Virus record (IMG/VR): IMGVR_UViG_3300042922_000707
Coordinates: 1-64,000 of that record
Direction: 5' to 3' (one strand)
DNA: 64,000 bases
Source: a virus
The notes under the pieces were generated by a model. The model did not search any database. It saw nothing but the letters and a program-made list of their open reading frames with translations, and was not told the DNA's origin. Shown piece after piece: positions 1-8,915 of this stretch; position 1 is the stretch's first letter; each line of letters opens with the position of its first letter. The translations under genes and the position numbers were made by a program.

Positions 1-1135
1 CACCCTCCTCCAAGGTCCAACCATTATATATTGCACTTGCTCCAATACTTTCAGCAAGCGACACAAGTATACTCATCATTGCTAAGTTTCTTGCTGGCGT
101 CCAACATACGGTGCTCTTTATGTTAGTCTTTTCAGACTTTGGTATATCTAAGTTAGGGTCTGTCAATACGCTACTTCCCAATTGCCCAAGCCACTTAATA
201 TCAATGTATTTTACTACCGCACCCAAATCATTGGCTATTGCCTGAACAGCTTCCCACTCACGCTCTGCACTCTTTTGACCCATGTCAAAAAATGCCATTA
301 CAACTTCCTTACCTTCTATCTTCTTCGCAACATAGGCACTGGTGGAACTGTCAATACCACCACTTGCACATACAAGTACTAAATTGTTATTCTTGGGTGG
401 TAAGCTGGAAATTGTCTTTGTGTGCAACTCCTCTTCCACGTGACAGAATTGTTTAAAGTTTATGTAATTGATTGTATACGGGTTGACATTTTCAATTCTA
501 TTTCTGCTAAATATATTCTCTTTGCCAAATATATCTTCAATAAACTCTCTCTCACTTGCAAAATAAAAATCATTTTTGTCTGTACCATACCAAAGCGTTT
601 TAAAGTCTTTGATTAGTACTACCTCATCTGGGTTGCCTATCTTGGCAAAAGCACATGCAAAACCCCCACTTAGAATTGGAAATACCTCATGCTTAAGTAT
701 ACTATAGCAGTCTCTAACCGTGCCGTAGGTTGTATGTCTATATAATAAGTCCAACACCAGCTCTGAGTCTAATTTCATATCCGTAAGTGAGTACTTACTA
801 CATAGCTCTTCGTCATTTGACACAACGCCATTATGAGCAAGGACATAGCCATGCTTTAATACTGGCTGTAGTGAATCCACATCAGTGCTTGCAATCTCCG
901 TCATAGGCTGTGCCCGTGCATTAAGTATTACAAAATCTCCACTGAAGTCCATATTGAAAAATGGCTCACTACCTGTTGGAAGTTCTGTACTTTTGAGCCA
1001 CTTCCCTGTCCTTACACTTACAATACCGTAACCATCCTGACCTCTAAGGCTAGTTTTTTCCATCAGTTGCACTATCTTTTTTACCTGCTCTGTGTGGTTA
1101 CCTTCTCCAAACCTAATACCTGCAATTCCGCACAT
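1..1135 (-). CDS. queC: Gat-QueC fusion (class II glutamine amidotransferase + 7-cyano-7-deazaguanine synthase), C-terminus beyond window edge
   Basis: Hand-translated; not in ORF track. ATG at 1135 with GGAGG RBS, open to position 1. MCGIAG..RGQDGYG..AHNGVVSN..DSE (Ntn-type GATase), then SGGIDS, FDMGQK, SSVLTD, TPARN (QueC motifs). Confidence 0.92.
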   Translation of the reverse strand, partial: MCGIAGIRFGEGNHTEQVKKIVQLMEKTSLRGQDGYGIVSVRTGKWLKSTELPTGSEPFFNMDFSGDFVILNARAQPMTEIASTDVDSLQPVLKHGYVLAHNGVVSNDEELCSKYSLTDMKLDSELVLDLLYRHTTYGTVRDCYSILKHEVFPILSGGFACAFAKIGNPDEVVLIKDFKTLWYGTDKNDFYFASEREFIEDIFGKENIFSRNRIENVNPYTINYINFKQFCHVEEELHTKTISSLPPKNNNLVLVCASGGIDSSTSAYVAKKIEGKEVVMAFFDMGQKSAEREWEAVQAIANDLGAVVKYIDIKWLGQLGSSVLTDPNLDIPKSEKTNIKSTVCWTPARNLAMMSILVSLAESIGASAIYNGWTLEEG

Positions 1136-1166
1136 TAAGTTCATACCTCCTTAATTTATATAGTAC

Positions 1167-1196
1167 AGTATAAAACCAACCATAAATAATTGTAAA
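1167..1196 (-). promoter_or_regulatory. Phage 18-bp-spacer promoter upstream of gat-queC
   Basis: Minus strand TTTACA-N18-TATACT-GTA. Confidence 0.75.
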
Positions 1197-1221
1197 ATAA
1201 AAAGCCCTGAATTAGGGCTTT
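1197..1221 (-). terminator. Intrinsic terminator after dNMP kinase
   Basis: AAAGCCCT/AGGGCTTT hairpin followed by T-run on minus strand. Confidence 0.7.
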
Positions 1222-1798
1222 ATTTTTGACACTCCGGTTCGTTAACTAAGTTTTCCAGCACTCTTTCCCAAGTTGACCTACTCTCAGTATTAACTGACCA
1301 AATCCTTATATTTTTATGTGTTTCAGAAAGCTCCTCCATCAACTTATAGTATTCGGATTGCTGACGGATTGATTCCTCTGTGCAGAAGTTTATATCCAAA
1401 TGTGATGCCTTATCACGATTTAATCTTTCTTGCATTACACCCAGGTTACCACAGAACAAATTAAGTATTATAACGTCATAGTCTATTTTGTCCAAGCGGT
1501 CCATCAGCCCTGCACAAACATCACTGAAGTTGTAGTTTCTATAGCCAAGTCTACAATAAACTTCCTCTGAAATAAATGTTCTGTCAAACAGCAAGTTAAC
1601 TCCTGTTCCGGAAGTGCTTTCCATATAATCCACTAAAGCACAGTACATTTTAGTGGACTTAAATTTTCCAGTTGGTGCCTTATCTCGATGTCCGCTTAGT
1701 CTATACAGATTAGTATATGGTAACTTCTCTCGGAGCCAGTTAGTAATTGTCGTCTTTCCTACGCCCTGAGGGCCTTCTACAATAATTAATTTACTCAT
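1220..1798 (-). CDS. Thymidylate/dNMP kinase-like P-loop protein
   Basis: IVEGPQGVGKTT Walker A, LLFDRTFISE motif of the TMK/dNK family; next to dut and thyX. Confidence 0.8.
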   Translation of the reverse strand: MSKLIIVEGPQGVGKTTITNWLREKLPYTNLYRLSGHRDKAPTGKFKSTKMYCALVDYMESTSGTGVNLLFDRTFISEEVYCRLGYRNYNFSDVCAGLMDRLDKIDYDVIILNLFCGNLGVMQERLNRDKASHLDINFCTEESIRQQSEYYKLMEELSETHKNIRIWSVNTESRSTWERVLENLVNEPECQK

Positions 1799-2304
1799 TT
1801 TCCGGAGCTCCCTATTAAGCCTTCCATCCTTTTGGATACTTTCTTAAGCAGTGTCGAAAGGCTTACCTCTTTGCACTTCACTCGAGGAGTTTTTACCATA
1901 ACTGCCTGGCATATTGCCTTGGACATTGGGTAGTAAATTGCATTATCCATCCCTGGCAATAACTTAATTTCCTCTTGCGTAATTACTTTATCATTGTAAA
2001 ATACTGCTGGCACATTATTGCAGTTTTGAATAGGAACTAACCACTCCCCTCTGAAACCACTGTCAAATACTCCCGCCCTTTGCTGTAGACCTTTGGTGCC
2101 TGTACTGCCACGCTCTTTAAGTATAACAGCATACCTATCACTAAAAGCGGACTTTAGTCCAGTAGAGAATTTGTGGATTTGTTGGGGCTCTAGTACGAGG
2201 TATGGGTCCAGCAATATTCCATAAATATCAAGTCCAGCGTCCTCCTTTCTCTTTGTTGGAATTACCGCCAAACTATTTATTCTAGCCCAATATATCTTTG
2301 CCAT
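1795..2304 (-). CDS. dut: Trimeric dUTPase
   Basis: AGLDI, ERGSTG, GVFDSGFRGE, ICQAV motifs and C-terminal RMEGLIGSSG. Confidence 0.92.
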   Translation of the reverse strand: MAKIYWARINSLAVIPTKRKEDAGLDIYGILLDPYLVLEPQQIHKFSTGLKSAFSDRYAVILKERGSTGTKGLQQRAGVFDSGFRGEWLVPIQNCNNVPAVFYNDKVITQEEIKLLPGMDNAIYYPMSKAICQAVMVKTPRVKCKEVSLSTLLKKVSKRMEGLIGSSGK

Positions 2305-3151
2305 TGTTACCCTCCTGTGCCTGCATCATTATTAAATACTGTTTGTAGCCCTCTAATACCTTAGCCTTAGTTGGCATCTTACCACAGCATTTTTTGCCCT
2401 CAATACAATAACCAAGCTGTTCGCATTTAGGTACCATATATTCCAATATTTCGGGTACGTATTTTTCCAACTCATCCTTCATCATGGATGCTATTCTTCT
2501 TATTTCCCATTGGGCTCTATTGCACAGGCGCTCGTTCATAAAGTGAATCATAGCCTGAAGTGAGAACACTGTGTTAACTCTAGTCTCACAGCCATTTGGA
2601 AGTACAAATCTAGCATCCTCGGCAGGTATGTCAAGTGCCTTTAGGTCACCATAGATAGTGTTTAGGTACTCCATTGCATCCACATAAATTACTTCTGCAA
2701 CTTTATTCTTTTTGATGCTCGGTGGGGTTATGTAATTAAAGCCATCCTCTTCCACGTATCTCTGTGAACGCTGGTTATGGTCCACACCCACACTGTGTCT
2801 AACATACTGGTGACTGAATGCCCTGCTTGCCCCTTCCACATGAAATTTAAAATGCACACTCCTTAAGGCAGACCCATGATTTGTGTCTATTACATGCTTT
2901 CCGATGTGCTTAATTCCATTTTGTGAGTCGTAGCAGATTTTTGCAAAGTCTCCTATTTGGTAAAACAGGTCCTTCAACTCATCAACATTCAAAAGTTGTA
3001 CAACTGGTTGTGACTCCCTGTCCTCACTATCCTCTTCATCAGGTATCACAGCAACCTTACATCCCTCAGCCTTATTGCTGGTGGTACAGTCTAAGCAAGA
3101 TTGACTAGCACACTTCAAAATTCCATCCTCTACCAATGTCTTTATTTTCAT
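2282..3151 (-). CDS. thyX: FAD-dependent thymidylate synthase with Cys-rich N-terminal extension
   Basis: SRAFSHQYVRH..QRSQRY, EDARFVLP, RLCNRAQWEIR. Confidence 0.93.
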   Translation of the reverse strand: MKIKTLVEDGILKCASQSCLDCTTSNKAEGCKVAVIPDEEDSEDRESQPVVQLLNVDELKDLFYQIGDFAKICYDSQNGIKHIGKHVIDTNHGSALRSVHFKFHVEGASRAFSHQYVRHSVGVDHNQRSQRYVEEDGFNYITPPSIKKNKVAEVIYVDAMEYLNTIYGDLKALDIPAEDARFVLPNGCETRVNTVFSLQAMIHFMNERLCNRAQWEIRRIASMMKDELEKYVPEILEYMVPKCEQLGYCIEGKKCCGKMPTKAKVLEGYKQYLIMMQAQEGNNGKDILG

Positions 3152-3213
3152 TACTACCTCCTATTATTTTAGTGACTTGGGATAGATTTATTCCACCCCA
3201 AGCCATCTTTGGT

Positions 3214-4221
3214 TTATTTATTAAGTTGCTCTTTAAAAATCTTATCCAAATCCATAAAGTGGTTTGCTGTGTCATTCCACTGTTCGGATAAGTATGGGTA
3301 GGACCAGAAACAGCCCGGGCACTCTTCTCTATCCTTGTGCCATGCCGCAAGGAATTCTTCTAAATTGTCTTGGAAGTTGAATACATTAAACTTACAAATG
3401 TTCTCTCCCTTTCTATACCCGCACACTCTGAAAGAGCCATCCGCATCAATTGTGAGTATTTCATCTTTGGTACAATGCCAATTCAAATTGTCCAAGTATC
3501 TAAATAGGTCCGCGAACCAGTTTGCATTGTTCTGTATATTAACTTCCTTGTCATTCTTCATTCTAAGAAGTTCTTTCAACTGCTCTTTCAATGCAAGTTT
3601 ATCTTCTTCATCCAGTATGTACTCGGATAACTCACCCTTTGGCGGGAAGAAGTCATATTTACCATCCTGGTCCCAATGGATAACATTGAGCCCAACTGTC
3701 AGACCAAACTGACTAACATACTTAACAATGTCAACAAGGTTTCTGCAATTCATTTTGTGTACAGTTATTATACCCAAAAGTTCTTCGACACCTTTTTCCT
3801 TCATGGCAAGTAAGTTTTCCAATCCCTGCCATCCCTTATCTTTTATATCACCCTTATACTCAGTATCTATGTTAACTAAATCTATTGGTATGCTGAAGTT
3901 CTTTAGTCCAGCGTTTACAACATCGTCACAGTACTGTTCAAACAACTCCTTAGGAGCGGAACTGTAGATTCCATAGTTGTAATCCTTAATGCCTTCAATA
4001 ATCTTAGGCAGTTCTTCCTTAAGCATAAAGGGCTCATTGCCTAAAATTAAGTTAAACTCTACACCAGCATCTTTAAGTATCTTAAATGCACTTAGCCACT
4101 GCTCTGTAGTTAACTCTGGTCCTTGTAACTTGCTGTCGCGTATTCTACAATACTCACATCTTCTTGGGCATTTCTTTGTCAAGTATACGCAACTTAATGG
4201 AAATTTTATATCCTTATTCAT
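3214..4221 (-). CDS. Radical SAM enzyme with C-terminal twitch/SPASM-like auxiliary cluster domain
   Basis: CPRRCEYC (CxxxCxxC), GNEP, C-terminal WHC..IDADGSFRVC..CPGC. Confidence 0.88.
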   Translation of the reverse strand: MNKDIKFPLSCVYLTKKCPRRCEYCRIRDSKLQGPELTTEQWLSAFKILKDAGVEFNLILGNEPFMLKEELPKIIEGIKDYNYGIYSSAPKELFEQYCDDVVNAGLKNFSIPIDLVNIDTEYKGDIKDKGWQGLENLLAMKEKGVEELLGIITVHKMNCRNLVDIVKYVSQFGLTVGLNVIHWDQDGKYDFFPPKGELSEYILDEEDKLALKEQLKELLRMKNDKEVNIQNNANWFADLFRYLDNLNWHCTKDEILTIDADGSFRVCGYRKGENICKFNVFNFQDNLEEFLAAWHKDREECPGCFWSYPYLSEQWNDTANHFMDLDKIFKEQLNK

Positions 4222-4925
4222 TACTTCCTCACCTGTCCTCCATCAATTATTATATTGGAGCCTGTCATAAATGGGCTGTCCAATATCATTTTAACAACTG
4301 GTACTATCTCTTCTGGCCGTGCCTCTCTTTTTTGTGGTACCTGTGCATCCAAAAGTTCCTGTGGTGCGTCCCCTGGTACTAAGTTTGTGTTGAAGTAGCC
4401 AGGGCTTATGCAGTTTATCCTCACCAATTCCGGCTTAAACGTACACAATCCTTCAGTTAGTGCTATTATGCCTGCCTTTGCCGCCGCATATAATGGAGTC
4501 TCGCTGTCCGCCTTTACACCGCAACATGACGCAATACTTATTATGTTCAACTTACAGCAGTCATCCATTGCACCCTGTATAAAATGTTTAGTCACAAGAT
4601 AGTGTGTCATTAAATTGACATCCAAAATATTAAATTCCTGTTTCAGGTCATACAGTAAAAAACTATCCTCTAGTGGCATGTAGCCTGCACAGTTTAAAAG
4701 CAAGTCACATCTAACCACGCCTTCCTTCACTAATTGGTCCACTACAGAAGCTGGGCTTTTATAGTCTACTTTTATGTGATGCACCGTTACTCCATCCGCT
4801 TCAATATTTAAGTAAGGCTTACTTCTACCTATACAATAGATTGTGTCATTGTATTGAATAATACCCTCTATTATAGCTTTACCTAACCCACTTGAGGCTC
4901 CGCTGATAACAATTACTCTGCCCAT
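4221..4925 (-). CDS. Short-chain dehydrogenase/reductase (SDR)
   Basis: ISGASSGLG cofactor motif, NCAG, YAAAK catalytic motif, INCISPG, TGSNIIIDGG. Confidence 0.92.
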   Translation of the reverse strand: MGRVIVISGASSGLGKAIIEGIIQYNDTIYCIGRSKPYLNIEADGVTVHHIKVDYKSPASVVDQLVKEGVVRCDLLLNCAGYMPLEDSFLLYDLKQEFNILDVNLMTHYLVTKHFIQGAMDDCCKLNIISIASCCGVKADSETPLYAAAKAGIIALTEGLCTFKPELVRINCISPGYFNTNLVPGDAPQELLDAQVPQKREARPEEIVPVVKMILDSPFMTGSNIIIDGGQVRK

Positions 4926-5083
4926 TAAATTTCCTCCTCTAAAAGTTGCGTGTCAATAAATTTTAATATTTTCTGTATACATGCGTGGTGCTCGACATAT
5001 TCCGGGCATGTAGGGCTTGGTATATCCTCACCCCACACTAACTCCCTCAATGCTATAATTTTATTTCTTAACTGCTCATCCAT
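4925..5083 (-). CDS. Small hypothetical protein (52 aa)
   Basis: Hand-translated MDEQLRNKIIALRELVWGEDIPSPTCPEYVEHHACIQKILKFIDTQLLEEEI; fills the gap, TAATG overlap with SDR. Confidence 0.65.
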   Translation of the reverse strand: MDEQLRNKIIALRELVWGEDIPSPTCPEYVEHHACIQKILKFIDTQLLEEEI

Positions 5084-5084
5084 A

Positions 5085-5657
5085 TTATCTATCCATGAAT
5101 TCTATGGTGTCAATTTTCCACACCTTATGCACTTTTCCACTTAGGTCCTCACAGATAGCACCAAAGTCAATACCTTCATCCTCTTCCATTCTACCCTCTT
5201 GGAACCACTGATGGAAATAACCTTCATGCTGTTCTTCATGCATATAAAATGCACCATTGTCTGGCTTACATCTTCTTTCAACAAGTGTAAATTTGCATCT
5301 TCTCAGTCCTGCACTCGCCTTGTCCAGTAAGTAATACATTTCTTGCTTAACATCAAAGTCTCTTAAAACTTCGTCTGTCACCACTGTATGCCCACTACCA
5401 AATAAACTGCTCGTTGCAGTTACCATAACTCCCTTAAAGTCCATACAGGCACTTAAGTAGTTAACAATCTCATTTACAAACTCTTCTATTGAGCCCGGCC
5501 ATTTCCATTCCATTATGTCCTTTTTAATCTGTTCCAAATCTGGAACATCATTTTTGCACAGCATGCCAACGCCAATAGTTAGTTCATCATGGGCATATTT
5601 AATATTACCTATGGTTACAACTCCCGGGTATGCTCCAACGAATTTAATCATGTTCAT
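5085..5657 (-). CDS. Two-domain hypothetical protein; N-terminal ~95 aa resembles a QueF-like T-fold
   Basis: DELTI..VPDLEQIKK..SIEEFVNEIVNYL..VMVTA pattern; TAATG-coupled to folE. Confidence 0.45.
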   Translation of the reverse strand: MNMIKFVGAYPGVVTIGNIKYAHDELTIGVGMLCKNDVPDLEQIKKDIMEWKWPGSIEEFVNEIVNYLSACMDFKGVMVTATSSLFGSGHTVVTDEVLRDFDVKQEMYYLLDKASAGLRRCKFTLVERRCKPDNGAFYMHEEQHEGYFHQWFQEGRMEEDEGIDFGAICEDLSGKVHKVWKIDTIEFMDR

Positions 5658-6232
5658 TATCTCCTTATCATTGATAAAAACTCCTGTCTAATTGCAGGGT
5701 CAGTTAAGAATGTTCCTCTCATTTCATTAGTGACAGTTATTGTACCTGGCTTTTTAACACCCCTCACTGTCATACACATGTGCTCTGCCTCTATTATAAC
5801 CGCACAGCCCTCAGCATCCAGTACTTCCATTATTGCATCCGCAATTTGACCAGTCAGTCTTTCTTGTATCTGTGGTCTCTTTGCATAGCCCTCTAGAAGT
5901 CTAGCAAGCTTACTTAAGCCAACAACTTTGCCATTTGGTATGTAACCTATGTGAGCAATGCCGTGGAATGGAACAAAGTGATGCTCGCAAAATGAATTAA
6001 ACGGTATCTTAGTTTCGATTACCATTGCACTTGTGGCTCCTTCGCTAAAGCCCTTCTGTAAATGTATTCTTGGGTCTTCTTTAAGCCCACTAAAGAACTC
6101 ACTATAAGCTCTTGCAAATCTTTCCGGTGTTTCTACCAACCCCTCTCTATTGGGGTCTTCGCCAATTGCTTCCAATATCTGCTTAAATGAACTGGCTACA
6201 ATTTCTTCTGCTGGTGTTAATTTTCTACCCAT
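5657..6232 (-). CDS. folE: GTP cyclohydrolase I
   Basis: [44 protein letters not shown]. Start moved to ATG 6232 (AAGGAGG RBS). Confidence 0.96.
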
Positions 6233-6263
6233 ACTAGCCTCCTTAAAATTAATTTTGCAATAC

Positions 6264-6293
6264 AGTATAAAATGAATCAAGTAAAAATGTAAA
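6264..6293 (-). promoter_or_regulatory. Phage 18-bp-spacer promoter upstream of folE
   Basis: TTTACA-N18-TATACT-GTA. Confidence 0.75.
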
Positions 6294-6339
6294 ATAAAAT
6301 TAAAAGACTCACTTTGATTTATGTGAGTCCTTAATTTAA

Positions 6340-6573
6340 TCAATTAAGTGTGCCCTTTTTGTACTCCTCTAGCTGTCTTCCTAGAAAGTCATTAATTCCT
6401 TCGTAAAGTGCATTTCTTCTCTCCAGACTACTAATTTCAATTTCACATAGAAACAACTGGTTTTCCAAGTGTATTATCCTATAGTGGCTAAATAGTCCGA
6501 AAACTATGTGGAATACTAGACTTAGTGCTAACAGCGAAAGCAAAATGAATTTTTCATTTTTAGTCTTCCACAT
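6340..6573 (-). CDS. Small single-TM membrane protein with coiled-coil tail
   Basis: Hydrophobic [20 protein letters not shown] segment. Confidence 0.55.
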
Positions 6574-6577
6574 GCCA

Positions 6578-7219
6578 TTATACCCCTCGCTCTTCCGGTG
6601 GCCATATAAATTTATGTATCTGTAATTGCATTCTGCAGTTATTCAATTTGTTCTCCAGAATAAATTCAACAATTCTTTTTGGCTCAATTTTTCCAAACAC
6701 AGGGCTAAAGAATACTTGGCAATTTGGCTTACAATTAATTATAAGCTGTTTTGCATCCAAGAGGTCTAATTCACTTCCACATACAAATTTAAGAGCGTCC
6801 TTACTCTGCAGTATATCCAAGTTGCTTAGTTGCATACAAGGTGACATAAGACTGCTTGGAGTCTTCCAGTCCATTGTTATGCACAGTGATGGATGGTTAG
6901 GAAGTTCTGATATATCACATGAGCCATTCGTCTCTATTTCAACTTCAAATCCATCCCCCAACAGTATTGTACAAAGTGAAATTAAGTCAGCACCCTGTAA
7001 TAAGGGTTCACCACCTGTAATTGTTACACGTTGTACATTACTTGCCAATACCAGGTCAAGCACCTCTGGAATAGACATTTCCTTTCCACCCTCATAGCTG
7101 TATGAGGTATCACAATAAGAACATCTCAAATTACATCCAACAAATCTTAGAAACAGTACCGGGTATCCTTGGTATCTACCCTCACCATTCACACTAACAA
7201 AGTGTTCCAAAAGTTTCAT
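6578..7219 (-). CDS. queE: 7-carboxy-7-deazaguanine synthase (radical SAM)
   Basis: SVNGEG, FLRFVGCNLRCSYCDT, TGGEPLLQ, IETNGS, QLQIHK. Confidence 0.95.
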   Translation of the reverse strand: MKLLEHFVSVNGEGRYQGYPVLFLRFVGCNLRCSYCDTSYSYEGGKEMSIPEVLDLVLASNVQRVTITGGEPLLQGADLISLCTILLGDGFEVEIETNGSCDISELPNHPSLCITMDWKTPSSLMSPCMQLSNLDILQSKDALKFVCGSELDLLDAKQLIINCKPNCQVFFSPVFGKIEPKRIVEFILENKLNNCRMQLQIHKFIWPPEERGV

Positions 7220-7236
7220 TTATTTCCTCCTCCATT

Positions 7237-7683
7237 CTAGGAATATGGGCACATAGCCTTATGTACCATCTTTCTTGTCAATGTTGCATAACTGTTCCTA
7301 GTTTCCCAAAGTTTAATTTCCTCCAACGCCACATGTGCTGGAAGTTCTTCTTGTATCGTCACCCACAAATATCTTATCATATTCTCACAGGTAGTATTGA
7401 AATCAAAGTAATTATTTAGATAATTGTGGTCCAATGGCTCTATAACTTCATTTACTATGCCTTTCAATTCCTTAAAGTCAATTAGAAGTCCATCTCTTCC
7501 GGGTTTGCCCTCTATCGTTACTTCCATATGATAACTATGTCCATGTGAGTGTTCACATTTACCCTCGTATGGTACCAAGTGGTGCCCCGCCTCAAAATCA
7601 AATTCTTTTGTTAATCTAACAGGGACGTTTTCCATTATTTCTGGGATTCCTTTACATCCCTCAACTCTTGTTTTAACTAGCAT
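7237..7683 (-). CDS. queD: 6-carboxytetrahydropterin synthase
   Basis: FEAGHHL..GKCEHSHGHSY, LDHNYLN, TTCEN, LWET. Confidence 0.95.
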   Translation of the reverse strand: MLVKTRVEGCKGIPEIMENVPVRLTKEFDFEAGHHLVPYEGKCEHSHGHSYHMEVTIEGKPGRDGLLIDFKELKGIVNEVIEPLDHNYLNNYFDFNTTCENMIRYLWVTIQEELPAHVALEEIKLWETRNSYATLTRKMVHKAMCPYS

Positions 7684-7832: not shown

Positions 7833-8915
7833 TTATCTGTTATAAACAGACTTTCTTCTTTCTTTTGTCAATAAATCTGTTGTCTCAATTTTTTGAACAT
7901 CAACTTTCTCGTCAAAAGCAAGCTTGTAAGTTCCTGCAAGTGCTCTCGCTAGAAATATTGCATATCTCTTTTCAGTGCTTTCGAGTGACTCATTCTTAGC
8001 TCTGTCTCCGGCTGTTAATGTACTAATTCTTTCAGCAAGTGGTTTGTACTCTTCTGACTTAACAAAGTCCACAGCAGTAGTTACACTTACATGCCACAAC
8101 ATGTCTTTTCCAAATAACACATTAACCTGACCTCTGGTTGCTCTATTGGCTTCCATTATCTTTGCACTGTAGCCCGACGCCTTAGCTTCCTGAACTAACT
8201 TATATTGGTTAACATCTTGTGGGTCTCTTAGTACCCATTTTGGATATCCATCAACTGGCTTTCTTGGCTCTTTTGGAGTTTTTGGAGCTGGTGTCGCTTT
8301 TCCTATTATTCCAACATCTTCCAATTCCACACCTGGTGTAATTGCTTTCAGTGCCTCTTCTGTTAATGCAATAGGACAATCTGCCTTAAGCATTTTCATG
8401 GCAGTCACTTTACTTACAAGGTAAGTAGCCAATAATAATTCTATTGCCTGGTCCTTACTATTGAATTTCTTAACCTCACCAGTTAAAATATCCATTATGT
8501 GCCCACTAACGACTTTTTTATTGGACTCCATTTTTTCTTCGATCTCGATTTCAATTGCAGTTTTACCTGTTCTAAATGACTGTTTAAATTTTACCGCCGC
8601 TTTTGGTTCCTTTGGTGCTTTTGGTTCCTTTGGTGCTTTTGGTGTCTTTGCGGAAATTTCTTTCTTAGCTTGTGTACCTGTTTCTGTGGCAACAGCCTCA
8701 ATAATTTCTCCGCCCTCATTCATAACCTCATTAACCTGCTCGGAAGTTAATTTCAATTCGGATTCCATAAATGCTCTTCCCATTCTCTCACTGCTAAATT
8801 TTCTGTTGTTTACTTCCATTTTAGCAACTTTGCCATCATCATTCTTATGAAGAATAACATTAACGGGCGTCTCACCAAATACCTTATTAATTTTTACCTG
8901 AGTCATAACTAACAC
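7833..8915 (-). CDS. Lys-rich multidomain hypothetical protein with PK(A/E/T) linkers
   Basis: 360-aa ORF; TPKAPKEPKAPKEPK and APKTPKEPRKP linkers; own promoters and terminator. Confidence 0.75.
   Translation of the reverse strand: MLVMTQVKINKVFGETPVNVILHKNDDGKVAKMEVNNRKFSSERMGRAFMESELKLTSEQVNEVMNEGGEIIEAVATETGTQAKKEISAKTPKAPKEPKAPKEPKAAVKFKQSFRTGKTAIEIEIEEKMESNKKVVSGHIMDILTGEVKKFNSKDQAIELLLATYLVSKVTAMKMLKADCPIALTEEALKAITPGVELEDVGIIGKATPAPKTPKEPRKPVDGYPKWVLRDPQDVNQYKLVQEAKASGYSAKIMEANRATRGQVNVLFGKDMLWHVSVTTAVDFVKSEEYKPLAERISTLTAGDRAKNESLESTEKRYAIFLARALAGTYKLAFDEKVDVQKIETTDLLTKERRKSVYNR

Follow-up and report, generated by a model that had tools for sequence, protein, structure and literature searches.

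A radical SAM enzyme and a short-chain dehydrogenase/reductase found with tailored 7-deazaguanine gene clusters of uncultured phages: candidate enzymes for a new DNA base

Introduction

Eight 7-deazaguanine bases of DNA are known (dPreQ0, dPreQ1, dG+, dADG, dCDG, dDG, mdPreQ1 and fdPreQ1). The pathways of phage deazaguanines have been reviewed (Cui, Hutinet et al. 2023, PMC10516641). The tailoring enzymes in that survey are QueF, ArcS, Gat-QueC and DpdL/M/N; no dehydrogenase is named in the text, where the sole mention of 'radical SAM' (SAM, S-adenosylmethionine) is in the title of a review of radical SAM methylases that it cites (PMC10516641). Here we describe a gene cluster in a stretch of 64,000 nucleotides of viral DNA (the window; bases 1-64000 of the 76,232-bp IMG/VR record IMGVR_UViG_3300042922_000707), in which genes of 7-deazaguanine synthesis are accompanied by a short-chain dehydrogenase/reductase (SDR) and a second radical SAM enzyme, which we named rSAM2. 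In the literature searched, no SDR or second radical SAM enzyme was described in a deazaguanine pathway, which agrees with a preliminary description of this DNA, according to which the phage pathways need neither.

The closest described system is the dG+ (archaeosine-base) pathway of the 9g-like Queuovirinae. Both have FolE, QueD, QueE and Gat-QueC, clustered beside replication genes, and the Gat-QueC of the window is 27-29% identical to that of the Queuovirinae over the whole of its preserved 381 residues. In the 9g-like phage JenP1, the cluster shows QueE, Gat-QueC, QueD and FolE, with no SDR, second radical SAM enzyme or T-fold open reading frame (ORF). The Queuovirinae system includes DpdA, and relatives of the window's cluster also carry DpdA (phrog_887); the record of the window differs in having neither dpdA nor queC, probably because its assembly is cut.

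Two other systems bear on the additional genes. In the C3'-deoxygenation of apramycin, AprD4, a diol dehydratase of the radical SAM kind, works with an NADPH-dependent reductase partner, AprD3 (PMC5461906). rSAM2 is likewise paired with a gene for a small NAD(P)H reductase, a likeness in gene pairing. With the tetrahydromonapterin route of E. coli (FolE, FolX and FolM), the window shares a GTP cyclohydrolase I, a T-fold protein and an SDR of ~235 residues, here in one operon. It differs from that route in that its T-fold ORF has a Tudor-like domain in addition and does not match FolX in sequence, its SDR fails the FolM hidden Markov model (HMM), and the pair is tied to rSAM2 and QueC-type enzymes.

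Results

rSAM2 occurs in 7-deazaguanine clusters with extra tailoring genes

We found 58 homologues of rSAM2, at 30-88% identity. A profile scan of IMG/VR gave 43 loci, and a motif scan of 185,579 species genomes gave one contig, in a Halanaerobiales metagenome-assembled genome (MAG). A tblastn search of 50,697 deposited phage records revealed no clear relative; the sole match was marginal (24.7% identity over half of the protein, E 8e-4) and lay in a metagenome-derived record that has no annotation. When the region was compared with the deposited phage records by megablast, nothing matched. rSAM2 is a virus-specific family, almost purely viral.

Que genes were present in all 43 IMG/VR loci and in the MAG contig. 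Among 44 rSAM2 loci, the window counted, FolE was found in 42, a QueC-family gene in 43 and DpdA (phrog_887) in 41. The synteny of these loci was DnaB-QueD-QueE-f9-FolE-(SDR)-rSAM2-QueC...-DpdA-clamp, and rSAM2 kept its place between folE and the QueC-family gene despite rearrangements. It directly precedes the QueC-family gene in most relatives, whereas thyX, dut and kinase stand between the two in the window. The CxxCxxC zinc motif, which simple clusters keep in their QueC, is missing from the QueC-family protein encoded after rSAM2 (Gat-QueC or a short QueC). The preliminary description had proposed a check of co-occurrence, and its outcome was clear: the homologues of rSAM2 lay only in que/DpdA clusters, and not mostly away from que genes.

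To avoid selecting on rSAM2, we also drew a DpdA-centred sample (80 of at least 578 loci), which gave 55 non-redundant complete clusters. Forty-one of these were simple preQ0 clusters (QueD-QueE-QueC-FolE-DpdA), and none of them carried rSAM2; among the 14 with extra tailoring genes, rSAM2 was present in eight (Fisher p 2.5e-6 against the simple clusters; such p-values overstate independence, the phages being related). The SDR (family f11) was found in three of the eight clusters with rSAM2 and in none of the 47 without it. Neither among the rSAM2 loci nor in the DpdA-centred clusters was the SDR ever found without rSAM2.

The rSAM2 loci were of two types. In type B, which includes the window, the genes are Gat-QueC (~540 residues), a small NT5C-like HAD protein, a second QueC, and then DpdA; in the relatives, this second QueC has the zinc motif. 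In type A, a short QueC (180-195 residues) is followed by f13, a PIG-L-like deacetylase and a GT-B glycosyltransferase, and then DpdA. In a quick tree of rSAM2, the SDR was found in nearly all type-B branches and in the early type-A branches, with several losses; this pattern fits an SDR that was ancestral to the pair with rSAM2 and was later lost in places.

Some further features of these loci were recorded. In the type-A block (L011-L045, for example L016:11716-14086), f13 has 139 residues, and some members add SAM methyltransferases (f21, f25). The small ORF between Gat-QueC and the second QueC in type-B loci (f22, ~98 residues; L005:12837-13733 region) is of the NT5C-like (HAD) deoxyribonucleotidase type. 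Five sister clusters (L087, L096, L097, L099 and L114) have two QueC paralogues (~235 residues) and a small HAD ORF, and have neither rSAM2 nor a Gat domain; they are another undescribed cluster variant. A distant relative of rSAM2 (25% identity, E 9e-15) adjoins Gat-QueC and a DpdA-like ORF in L049, an unrelated phage contig with DNA polymerase III alpha, and its radical SAM protein as the query gave no viral loci. The polymerase of this contig (L049:7877-10972) is fused to an N-terminal uracil-DNA glycosylase domain and adjoins QueE-like, QueC-like, DpdA-like and Gat-QueC genes.

Sequence and fold of rSAM2 and the SDR

In rSAM2, the motif C18x3C22x2C25 and a GNE (G61-N-E63) in place of GGE were invariant in 35 sequences (alignment A1). 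A C-terminal motif, C250x11G262x4C267 and C301x2C304, was invariant in the same number of sequences, and its four cysteines would hold a single auxiliary cluster. These are motifs of the SPASM/twitch subgroup, so that the label 'twitch-type' given to the enzyme in the preliminary description fits. The top folds for rSAM2 were SkfB, PqqE, SuiB, anSME and MoaA, and the best structural match was BlsE (PDB 7vob), the radical SAM 1,2-diol dehydratase of blasticidin S biosynthesis. We rejected rSAM2 as a QueE: none of its 21 NCBIfam matches was a QueE model, a local QueE HMM gave E 0.005, and a separate true QueE is present.

The SDR is a classical member of its family with 234 residues, containing GxxxGxG, YxxxK and an Arg after beta-2. 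This Arg suggests that it uses NADPH. Against solved structures, it gave only generic FabG or glucose-dehydrogenase matches. An assignment as FolM was rejected, as its score on NF005066 was 46.3 bits against a cut-off of 249, below its own scores for generic FabG and glucose dehydrogenase, and its identity to E. coli FolM was 28% over 88 residues. A dedicated NAD(P)H ketoreductase partner, as 1,2-diol dehydratases have, was found for rSAM2: the SDR gene overlaps the rSAM2 gene by TAATG, and its family occurs only with rSAM2.

Gene order and operon signals

The minus strand carries all identified genes of the window and nearly all of its long ORFs. Along the direction of transcription, PHROG matches gave ~14 kb of small early ORFs, then terminase, portal and tape measure, then replication genes (helicases, DnaB, an A-family DNA polymerase and the clamp loader), and then the cluster studied here. 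The best explanation is that the window comes from an uncultured tailed phage with a genome of at least 76 kb, and that the cluster is the end of its nucleotide-metabolism module.

The cluster has the order queD-queE-orf77-folE-orf190-orf52-SDR-rSAM2-thyX-dut-kinase-Gat-QueC (Table 1). Gene identities were taken from Pfam, NCBIfam or PHROG matches. These matches bore out every gene call of the preliminary description (queD, queE, folE, the SDR, the radical SAM enzyme, thyX-dut-kinase and Gat-QueC); FolE, QueD and QueE were all present, with Pfam and NCBIfam scores far above noise.

Table 1. Genes of the cluster, listed along the direction of transcription (positions in the window)
Gene product	Position	Strand	Evidence and remarks
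QueD (6-carboxytetrahydropterin synthase)	7237..7683	-	PF01242 119 bits; TIGR03367 93 bits, over cut-off
QueE (7-carboxy-7-deazaguanine synthase, radical SAM)	6578..7219	-	TIGR03963 244.6 bits; phrog_2076
orf77, small, with a hydrophobic N-terminal stretch and no family match	6340..6573	-	hairpin and T-run after it
FolE (GTP cyclohydrolase I)	5657..6343, likely start ATG 6232	-	PF01227 243 bits; NF006826 255 bits
orf190, N-terminal T-fold and C-terminal Tudor/SH3-like barrel	5085..5657	-	
orf52, small acidic ORF, 52 residues	4925..5083	-	kept only in a near-identical record
Classical SDR	4221..4925	-	adh_short 85 bits
rSAM2, radical SAM enzyme with one four-Cys auxiliary-cluster (twitch-like) domain	3214..4221	-	PF04055
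ThyX (flavin-dependent thymidylate synthase)	2282..3151	-	TIGR02170 121 bits
Dut (dUTPase / dCTP-deaminase superfamily)	1795..2304	-	PF00692 25.7 bits; NF001862
dNMP (thymidylate-type) kinase	1220..1798	-	phrog_761 E 4.9e-13
Gat-QueC, class-II glutamine amidotransferase and QueC-type PP-loop ATPase	2..1144	-	GATase_6/7 and QueC (Pfam, NCBIfam)

TAATG overlaps were found at the folE/orf190, orf52/SDR and SDR/rSAM2 junctions, and the gap between orf190 and orf52 is 1 nt; the SDR, rSAM2 and the T-fold/Tudor-like protein are translationally coupled to folE. Hairpins with T-runs, as terminators, follow orf77 and the kinase gene (hairpin of the latter at 1221-1201). Between orf77 and folE, the hairpin and T-run are followed by a promoter-like sequence (6293-6264), the ribosome-binding site AAGGAGG and ATG 6232, which is likely the true start of folE. 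A folE promoter and a coupled run mostly joined by TAATG were the operon signals of the preliminary description, and both were recovered here. The promoter-like sequence TTTACA-N18-TATACT occurs in three copies on the minus strand, ahead of queD (7740-7711), folE (6293-6264) and gat-queC (1196-1167); it may be a phage middle-gene promoter consensus.

The T-fold ORF

An AF2 (AlphaFold2) model of orf190 (pLDDT 82) contained a T-fold at about residues 3-116 and a small Tudor/SH3-like barrel at 118-190. The beta-beta-alpha-alpha-beta-beta fold, as in FolE, FolB, FolX, QueD and QueF, was present, and the T-fold part of the model matched FolE, DHNA and FolX; the ORF had thus been correctly called 'T-fold-like' from the start. 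Because pterins and 7-deazaguanines are ligands of enzymes with a T-fold, orf190 probably binds one of the two, as judged from the model. The thioimide Cys of QueF/QueF-L was not conserved in orf190, and a lone Cys nearby, C34, is Ala or Ser in the homologues P0061 and P0064.

An exhaustive HMMER search showed that orf190 joins two small phage proteins into one; each of the two also occurs separately. Stand-alone homologues of its C-terminal barrel (window 5085-5300), with 57-79 residues (phrog_11000), occur in other phages; the barrel may bind nucleic acid. orf190 had no family match, searches of PDB and Pfam with sequence profiles of orf190 and f13 gave nothing, and tblastn of orf190 against the deposited phage records gave no match. 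The T-fold ORF is confined to the lineage of the window, with at most a weak link to f13 (probability 40%).

Gat-QueC and the end of the record

Gat-QueC joins a class-II glutamine amidotransferase, which has its Cys at the N-terminus, to a QueC PP-loop domain with SGGxDS at residue 260. The record end cuts it: its match to the QueC profile spans positions 3-124 of 210, and ~120 C-terminal residues are missing. Full-length relatives have 503-545 residues, the shortest being that of L049. The ORF begins with M-N-L-M-C (window 1130-1144), and the true start is probably 1135, because the second ATG leaves the N-terminal Cys that class-II amidotransferases need.

In the 76-kb record, no DpdA was found with PF01702 (TGT), PF20314 (DUF6610), phrog_887 or an HMM of the relatives' DpdA, and no stand-alone QueC, glycosyltransferase or PIG-L was found. 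We rejected orf360 (7833-8915) as a divergent DpdA (hhalign probability 0.05%). The preliminary description had recommended a search for dpdA to the left of the window; this search has no room, as the window starts at record base 1 and nothing lies further left.

The record is rated 'linear, 100% complete'. A sister record, IMGVR_UViG_3300042922_000600 (L002/L046), is 80-99% identical to it and has the same end bases at both ends. Over exactly 127 nt at either end (window 1-127; record 76106-76232 = L001 12106-12232), the two strains do not differ at all, and directly beyond this stretch they diverge. Judged by this pattern, the coincident ends mark a de Bruijn graph break at k=127, at a segment that would be identical in two co-occurring strains; real genome termini were rejected as their cause, and no terminal repeats were found. 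Because of this k=127 break, the record lacks the shared segment, its rating notwithstanding. Synteny with the type-B relatives suggests that the missing segment holds the rest of Gat-QueC, queC and dpdA. An exact 47-mer from the shared end was found in IMG/VR only in the sister record, and a Gat-QueC protein scan of metagenome contigs for the missing segment gave only the 45%-identical L049. As it has no dpdA and no queC, this record offers a poorer starting point than its relatives do.

Discussion

We hold, with about even confidence, that rSAM2 and the SDR tailor a precursor of a new 7-deazaguanine in phage DNA. FolE, QueD and QueE make 7-carboxy-7-deazaguanine, and Gat-QueC is the archaeosine-type amidotransferase known from dG+ phages; close past the cut end of the record, we expect a canonical QueC and DpdA, the DNA transglycosylase. 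To this known system, an accessory module would be added by rSAM2, by the NADPH-type SDR that partners it and, in the lineage of the window, by the T-fold/Tudor-like protein. rSAM2 and the SDR would act on the free deazaguanine or on a pterin-stage precursor, ahead of its insertion into DNA by DpdA. rSAM2 would abstract a hydrogen beside a hydroxyl and leave a carbonyl, either through dehydration of a 1,2-diol or through dehydrogenation, and reduction of this carbonyl would fall to the SDR; AprD4/AprD3 is the precedent for such a pair. The product would be a 7-deazaguanine derivative unlike the eight described. The substrate, the type of reaction and the DNA product are what we infer here, next to gene identities, operon structure, folds and an exclusive association with tailored clusters, which were observed.

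Several observations weigh against this proposal. Co-occurrence with que genes is partly shared ancestry, because the phages behind nearly all loci are related and share one replication synteny; the exceptions are L045, in a MAG bin, and L049, in another lineage. The SDR is missing from ~40% of the rSAM2 loci. The likeness of rSAM2 to BlsE is structural only (E > 1 in sequence searches), and peptide-modifying enzymes, viperins and MoaA lie only 3-5 Z units below BlsE. The record has no DpdA, stand-alone QueC or complete Gat-QueC, so that DNA modification as the end point rests on the relatives and on the assembly-break argument. The type-B phages have no counterpart of the type-A glycosyltransferase and deacetylase, and no diol-bearing substrate is evident in them. 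FolE, the T-fold protein and the SDR also match the FolE/FolX/FolM pterin route, and the clusters closest to the SDR in a language-model search carried the automatic name 'dihydromonapterin reductase'. The idea of deazaguanine tailoring in the preliminary description therefore fared unevenly: it gained from the occurrence of rSAM2 in que/DpdA clusters only, with none in the simple and eight in the tailored ones, and it lost from the missing dpdA and queC, which the assembly break would explain, and from an SDR that many loci dispense with.

A more specific form of the proposal is offered tentatively. rSAM2 and the SDR could be a radical diol-dehydratase/ketoreductase (or dehydrogenase/reductase) pair that remodels a hydroxylated substituent on a precursor of 7-deazaguanine, giving a ninth derivative in DNA, to which the type-A phages would add a deoxy-amino sugar. 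In type A, a GlcNAc-type glycosyltransferase and the PIG-L deacetylase complete the set of enzymes that yields paromamine and, after it, lividamine. Since the glycosyltransferase, the deacetylase, the radical SAM enzyme and the SDR are the same four enzyme types that lead from 2-deoxystreptamine to lividamine, this analogy suggests an amino sugar or deoxy-amino sugar on deazaguanine as the type-A product. The lividamine route includes a glycosyltransferase and a deacetylase step; the parallel is a lead, not a test. The type-B cluster of the window differs from the AprD4/AprD3 system in having no glycosyltransferase or deacetylase. The type-A glycosyltransferase was absent from three type-B records that are 93-100% complete, in a search that found its positive control. 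A sugar added by this enzyme was therefore rejected as the general substrate of rSAM2, and a substrate common to types A and B would not be that sugar, because type B has no glycosyltransferase.

Another explanation, which we consider rather unlikely, is that the DNA contains ordinary dG+ (or dPreQ0) and that rSAM2 and the SDR support the standard pathway, through an alternative or anaerobic route, by-product handling or the supply of an amine or cofactor. Homologues of Gat-QueC with 27-29% identity are a mark of dG+ phages, the 9g-like JenP1 among them, and Gat-QueC or two QueC genes occur without rSAM2 in L086, L087, L096 and L099, so these enzymes work without it. However, none of the 41 simple clusters and none of the 63 deposited phage records with a Gat-QueC homologue has an rSAM2 relative; since they run the pathway without rSAM2, no support function is needed. 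A strictly co-inherited redox pair is also more typical of a tailoring step.

We likewise judge it improbable that the additional genes form a pterin branch, in which the dihydroneopterin triphosphate made by FolE would be converted by the T-fold protein (FolX/FolB-like) and the SDR (FolM/sepiapterin-reductase-like) to a reduced pterin that rSAM2 modifies or uses, the product being a cofactor or metabolite and not a DNA base. The translational coupling and the language-model neighbours of the SDR speak for such a branch, as does the match of the orf190 T-fold model to FolE, DHNA and FolX; FolE/FolX/FolM is, moreover, an established three-enzyme route in E. coli. On the other hand, the SDR reaches only 46 bits on the FolM HMM (cut-off 249), E. 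coli FolM aligns to it over 88 residues, and it never occurs without rSAM2. rSAM2 tracks the non-canonical QueC enzymes and not FolE alone, sister phages with folE in simple clusters carry no SDR, and the T-fold ORF is confined to one lineage.

It is very unlikely that a nucleotide or nucleotide sugar is the substrate of rSAM2 and the SDR (in viperin-, BlsE- or DesII-like chemistry, for pool manipulation or counter-defence) and that the two owe their location to ancestry only: the structural neighbours viperins, BlsE, DesII, AbmM and MoaA all act on nucleotides or nucleoside sugars, thyX, dut and the kinase directly follow rSAM2 in the window, and type-B relatives carry an NT5C-like nucleotidase, but the rSAM2 family was not found outside que/DpdA clusters in any locus and is missing where sister phages combine this same set of replication and nucleotide genes with simple que clusters.

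The tailoring of a deazaguanine precursor by rSAM2 and the SDR would be of wider consequence. The only clusters with this module are tailored que/DpdA ones, from uncultured phages, which points to chemistry outside the enzymes listed so far, and the proposal, if true, would add a base to the natural ones of DNA and a reaction to those known from radical SAM enzymes. The 7-deazaguanine bases in DNA shape the evasion of restriction, CRISPR and glycosylases and are useful handles for biotechnology, and the cluster is of real interest for the field of DNA modification.

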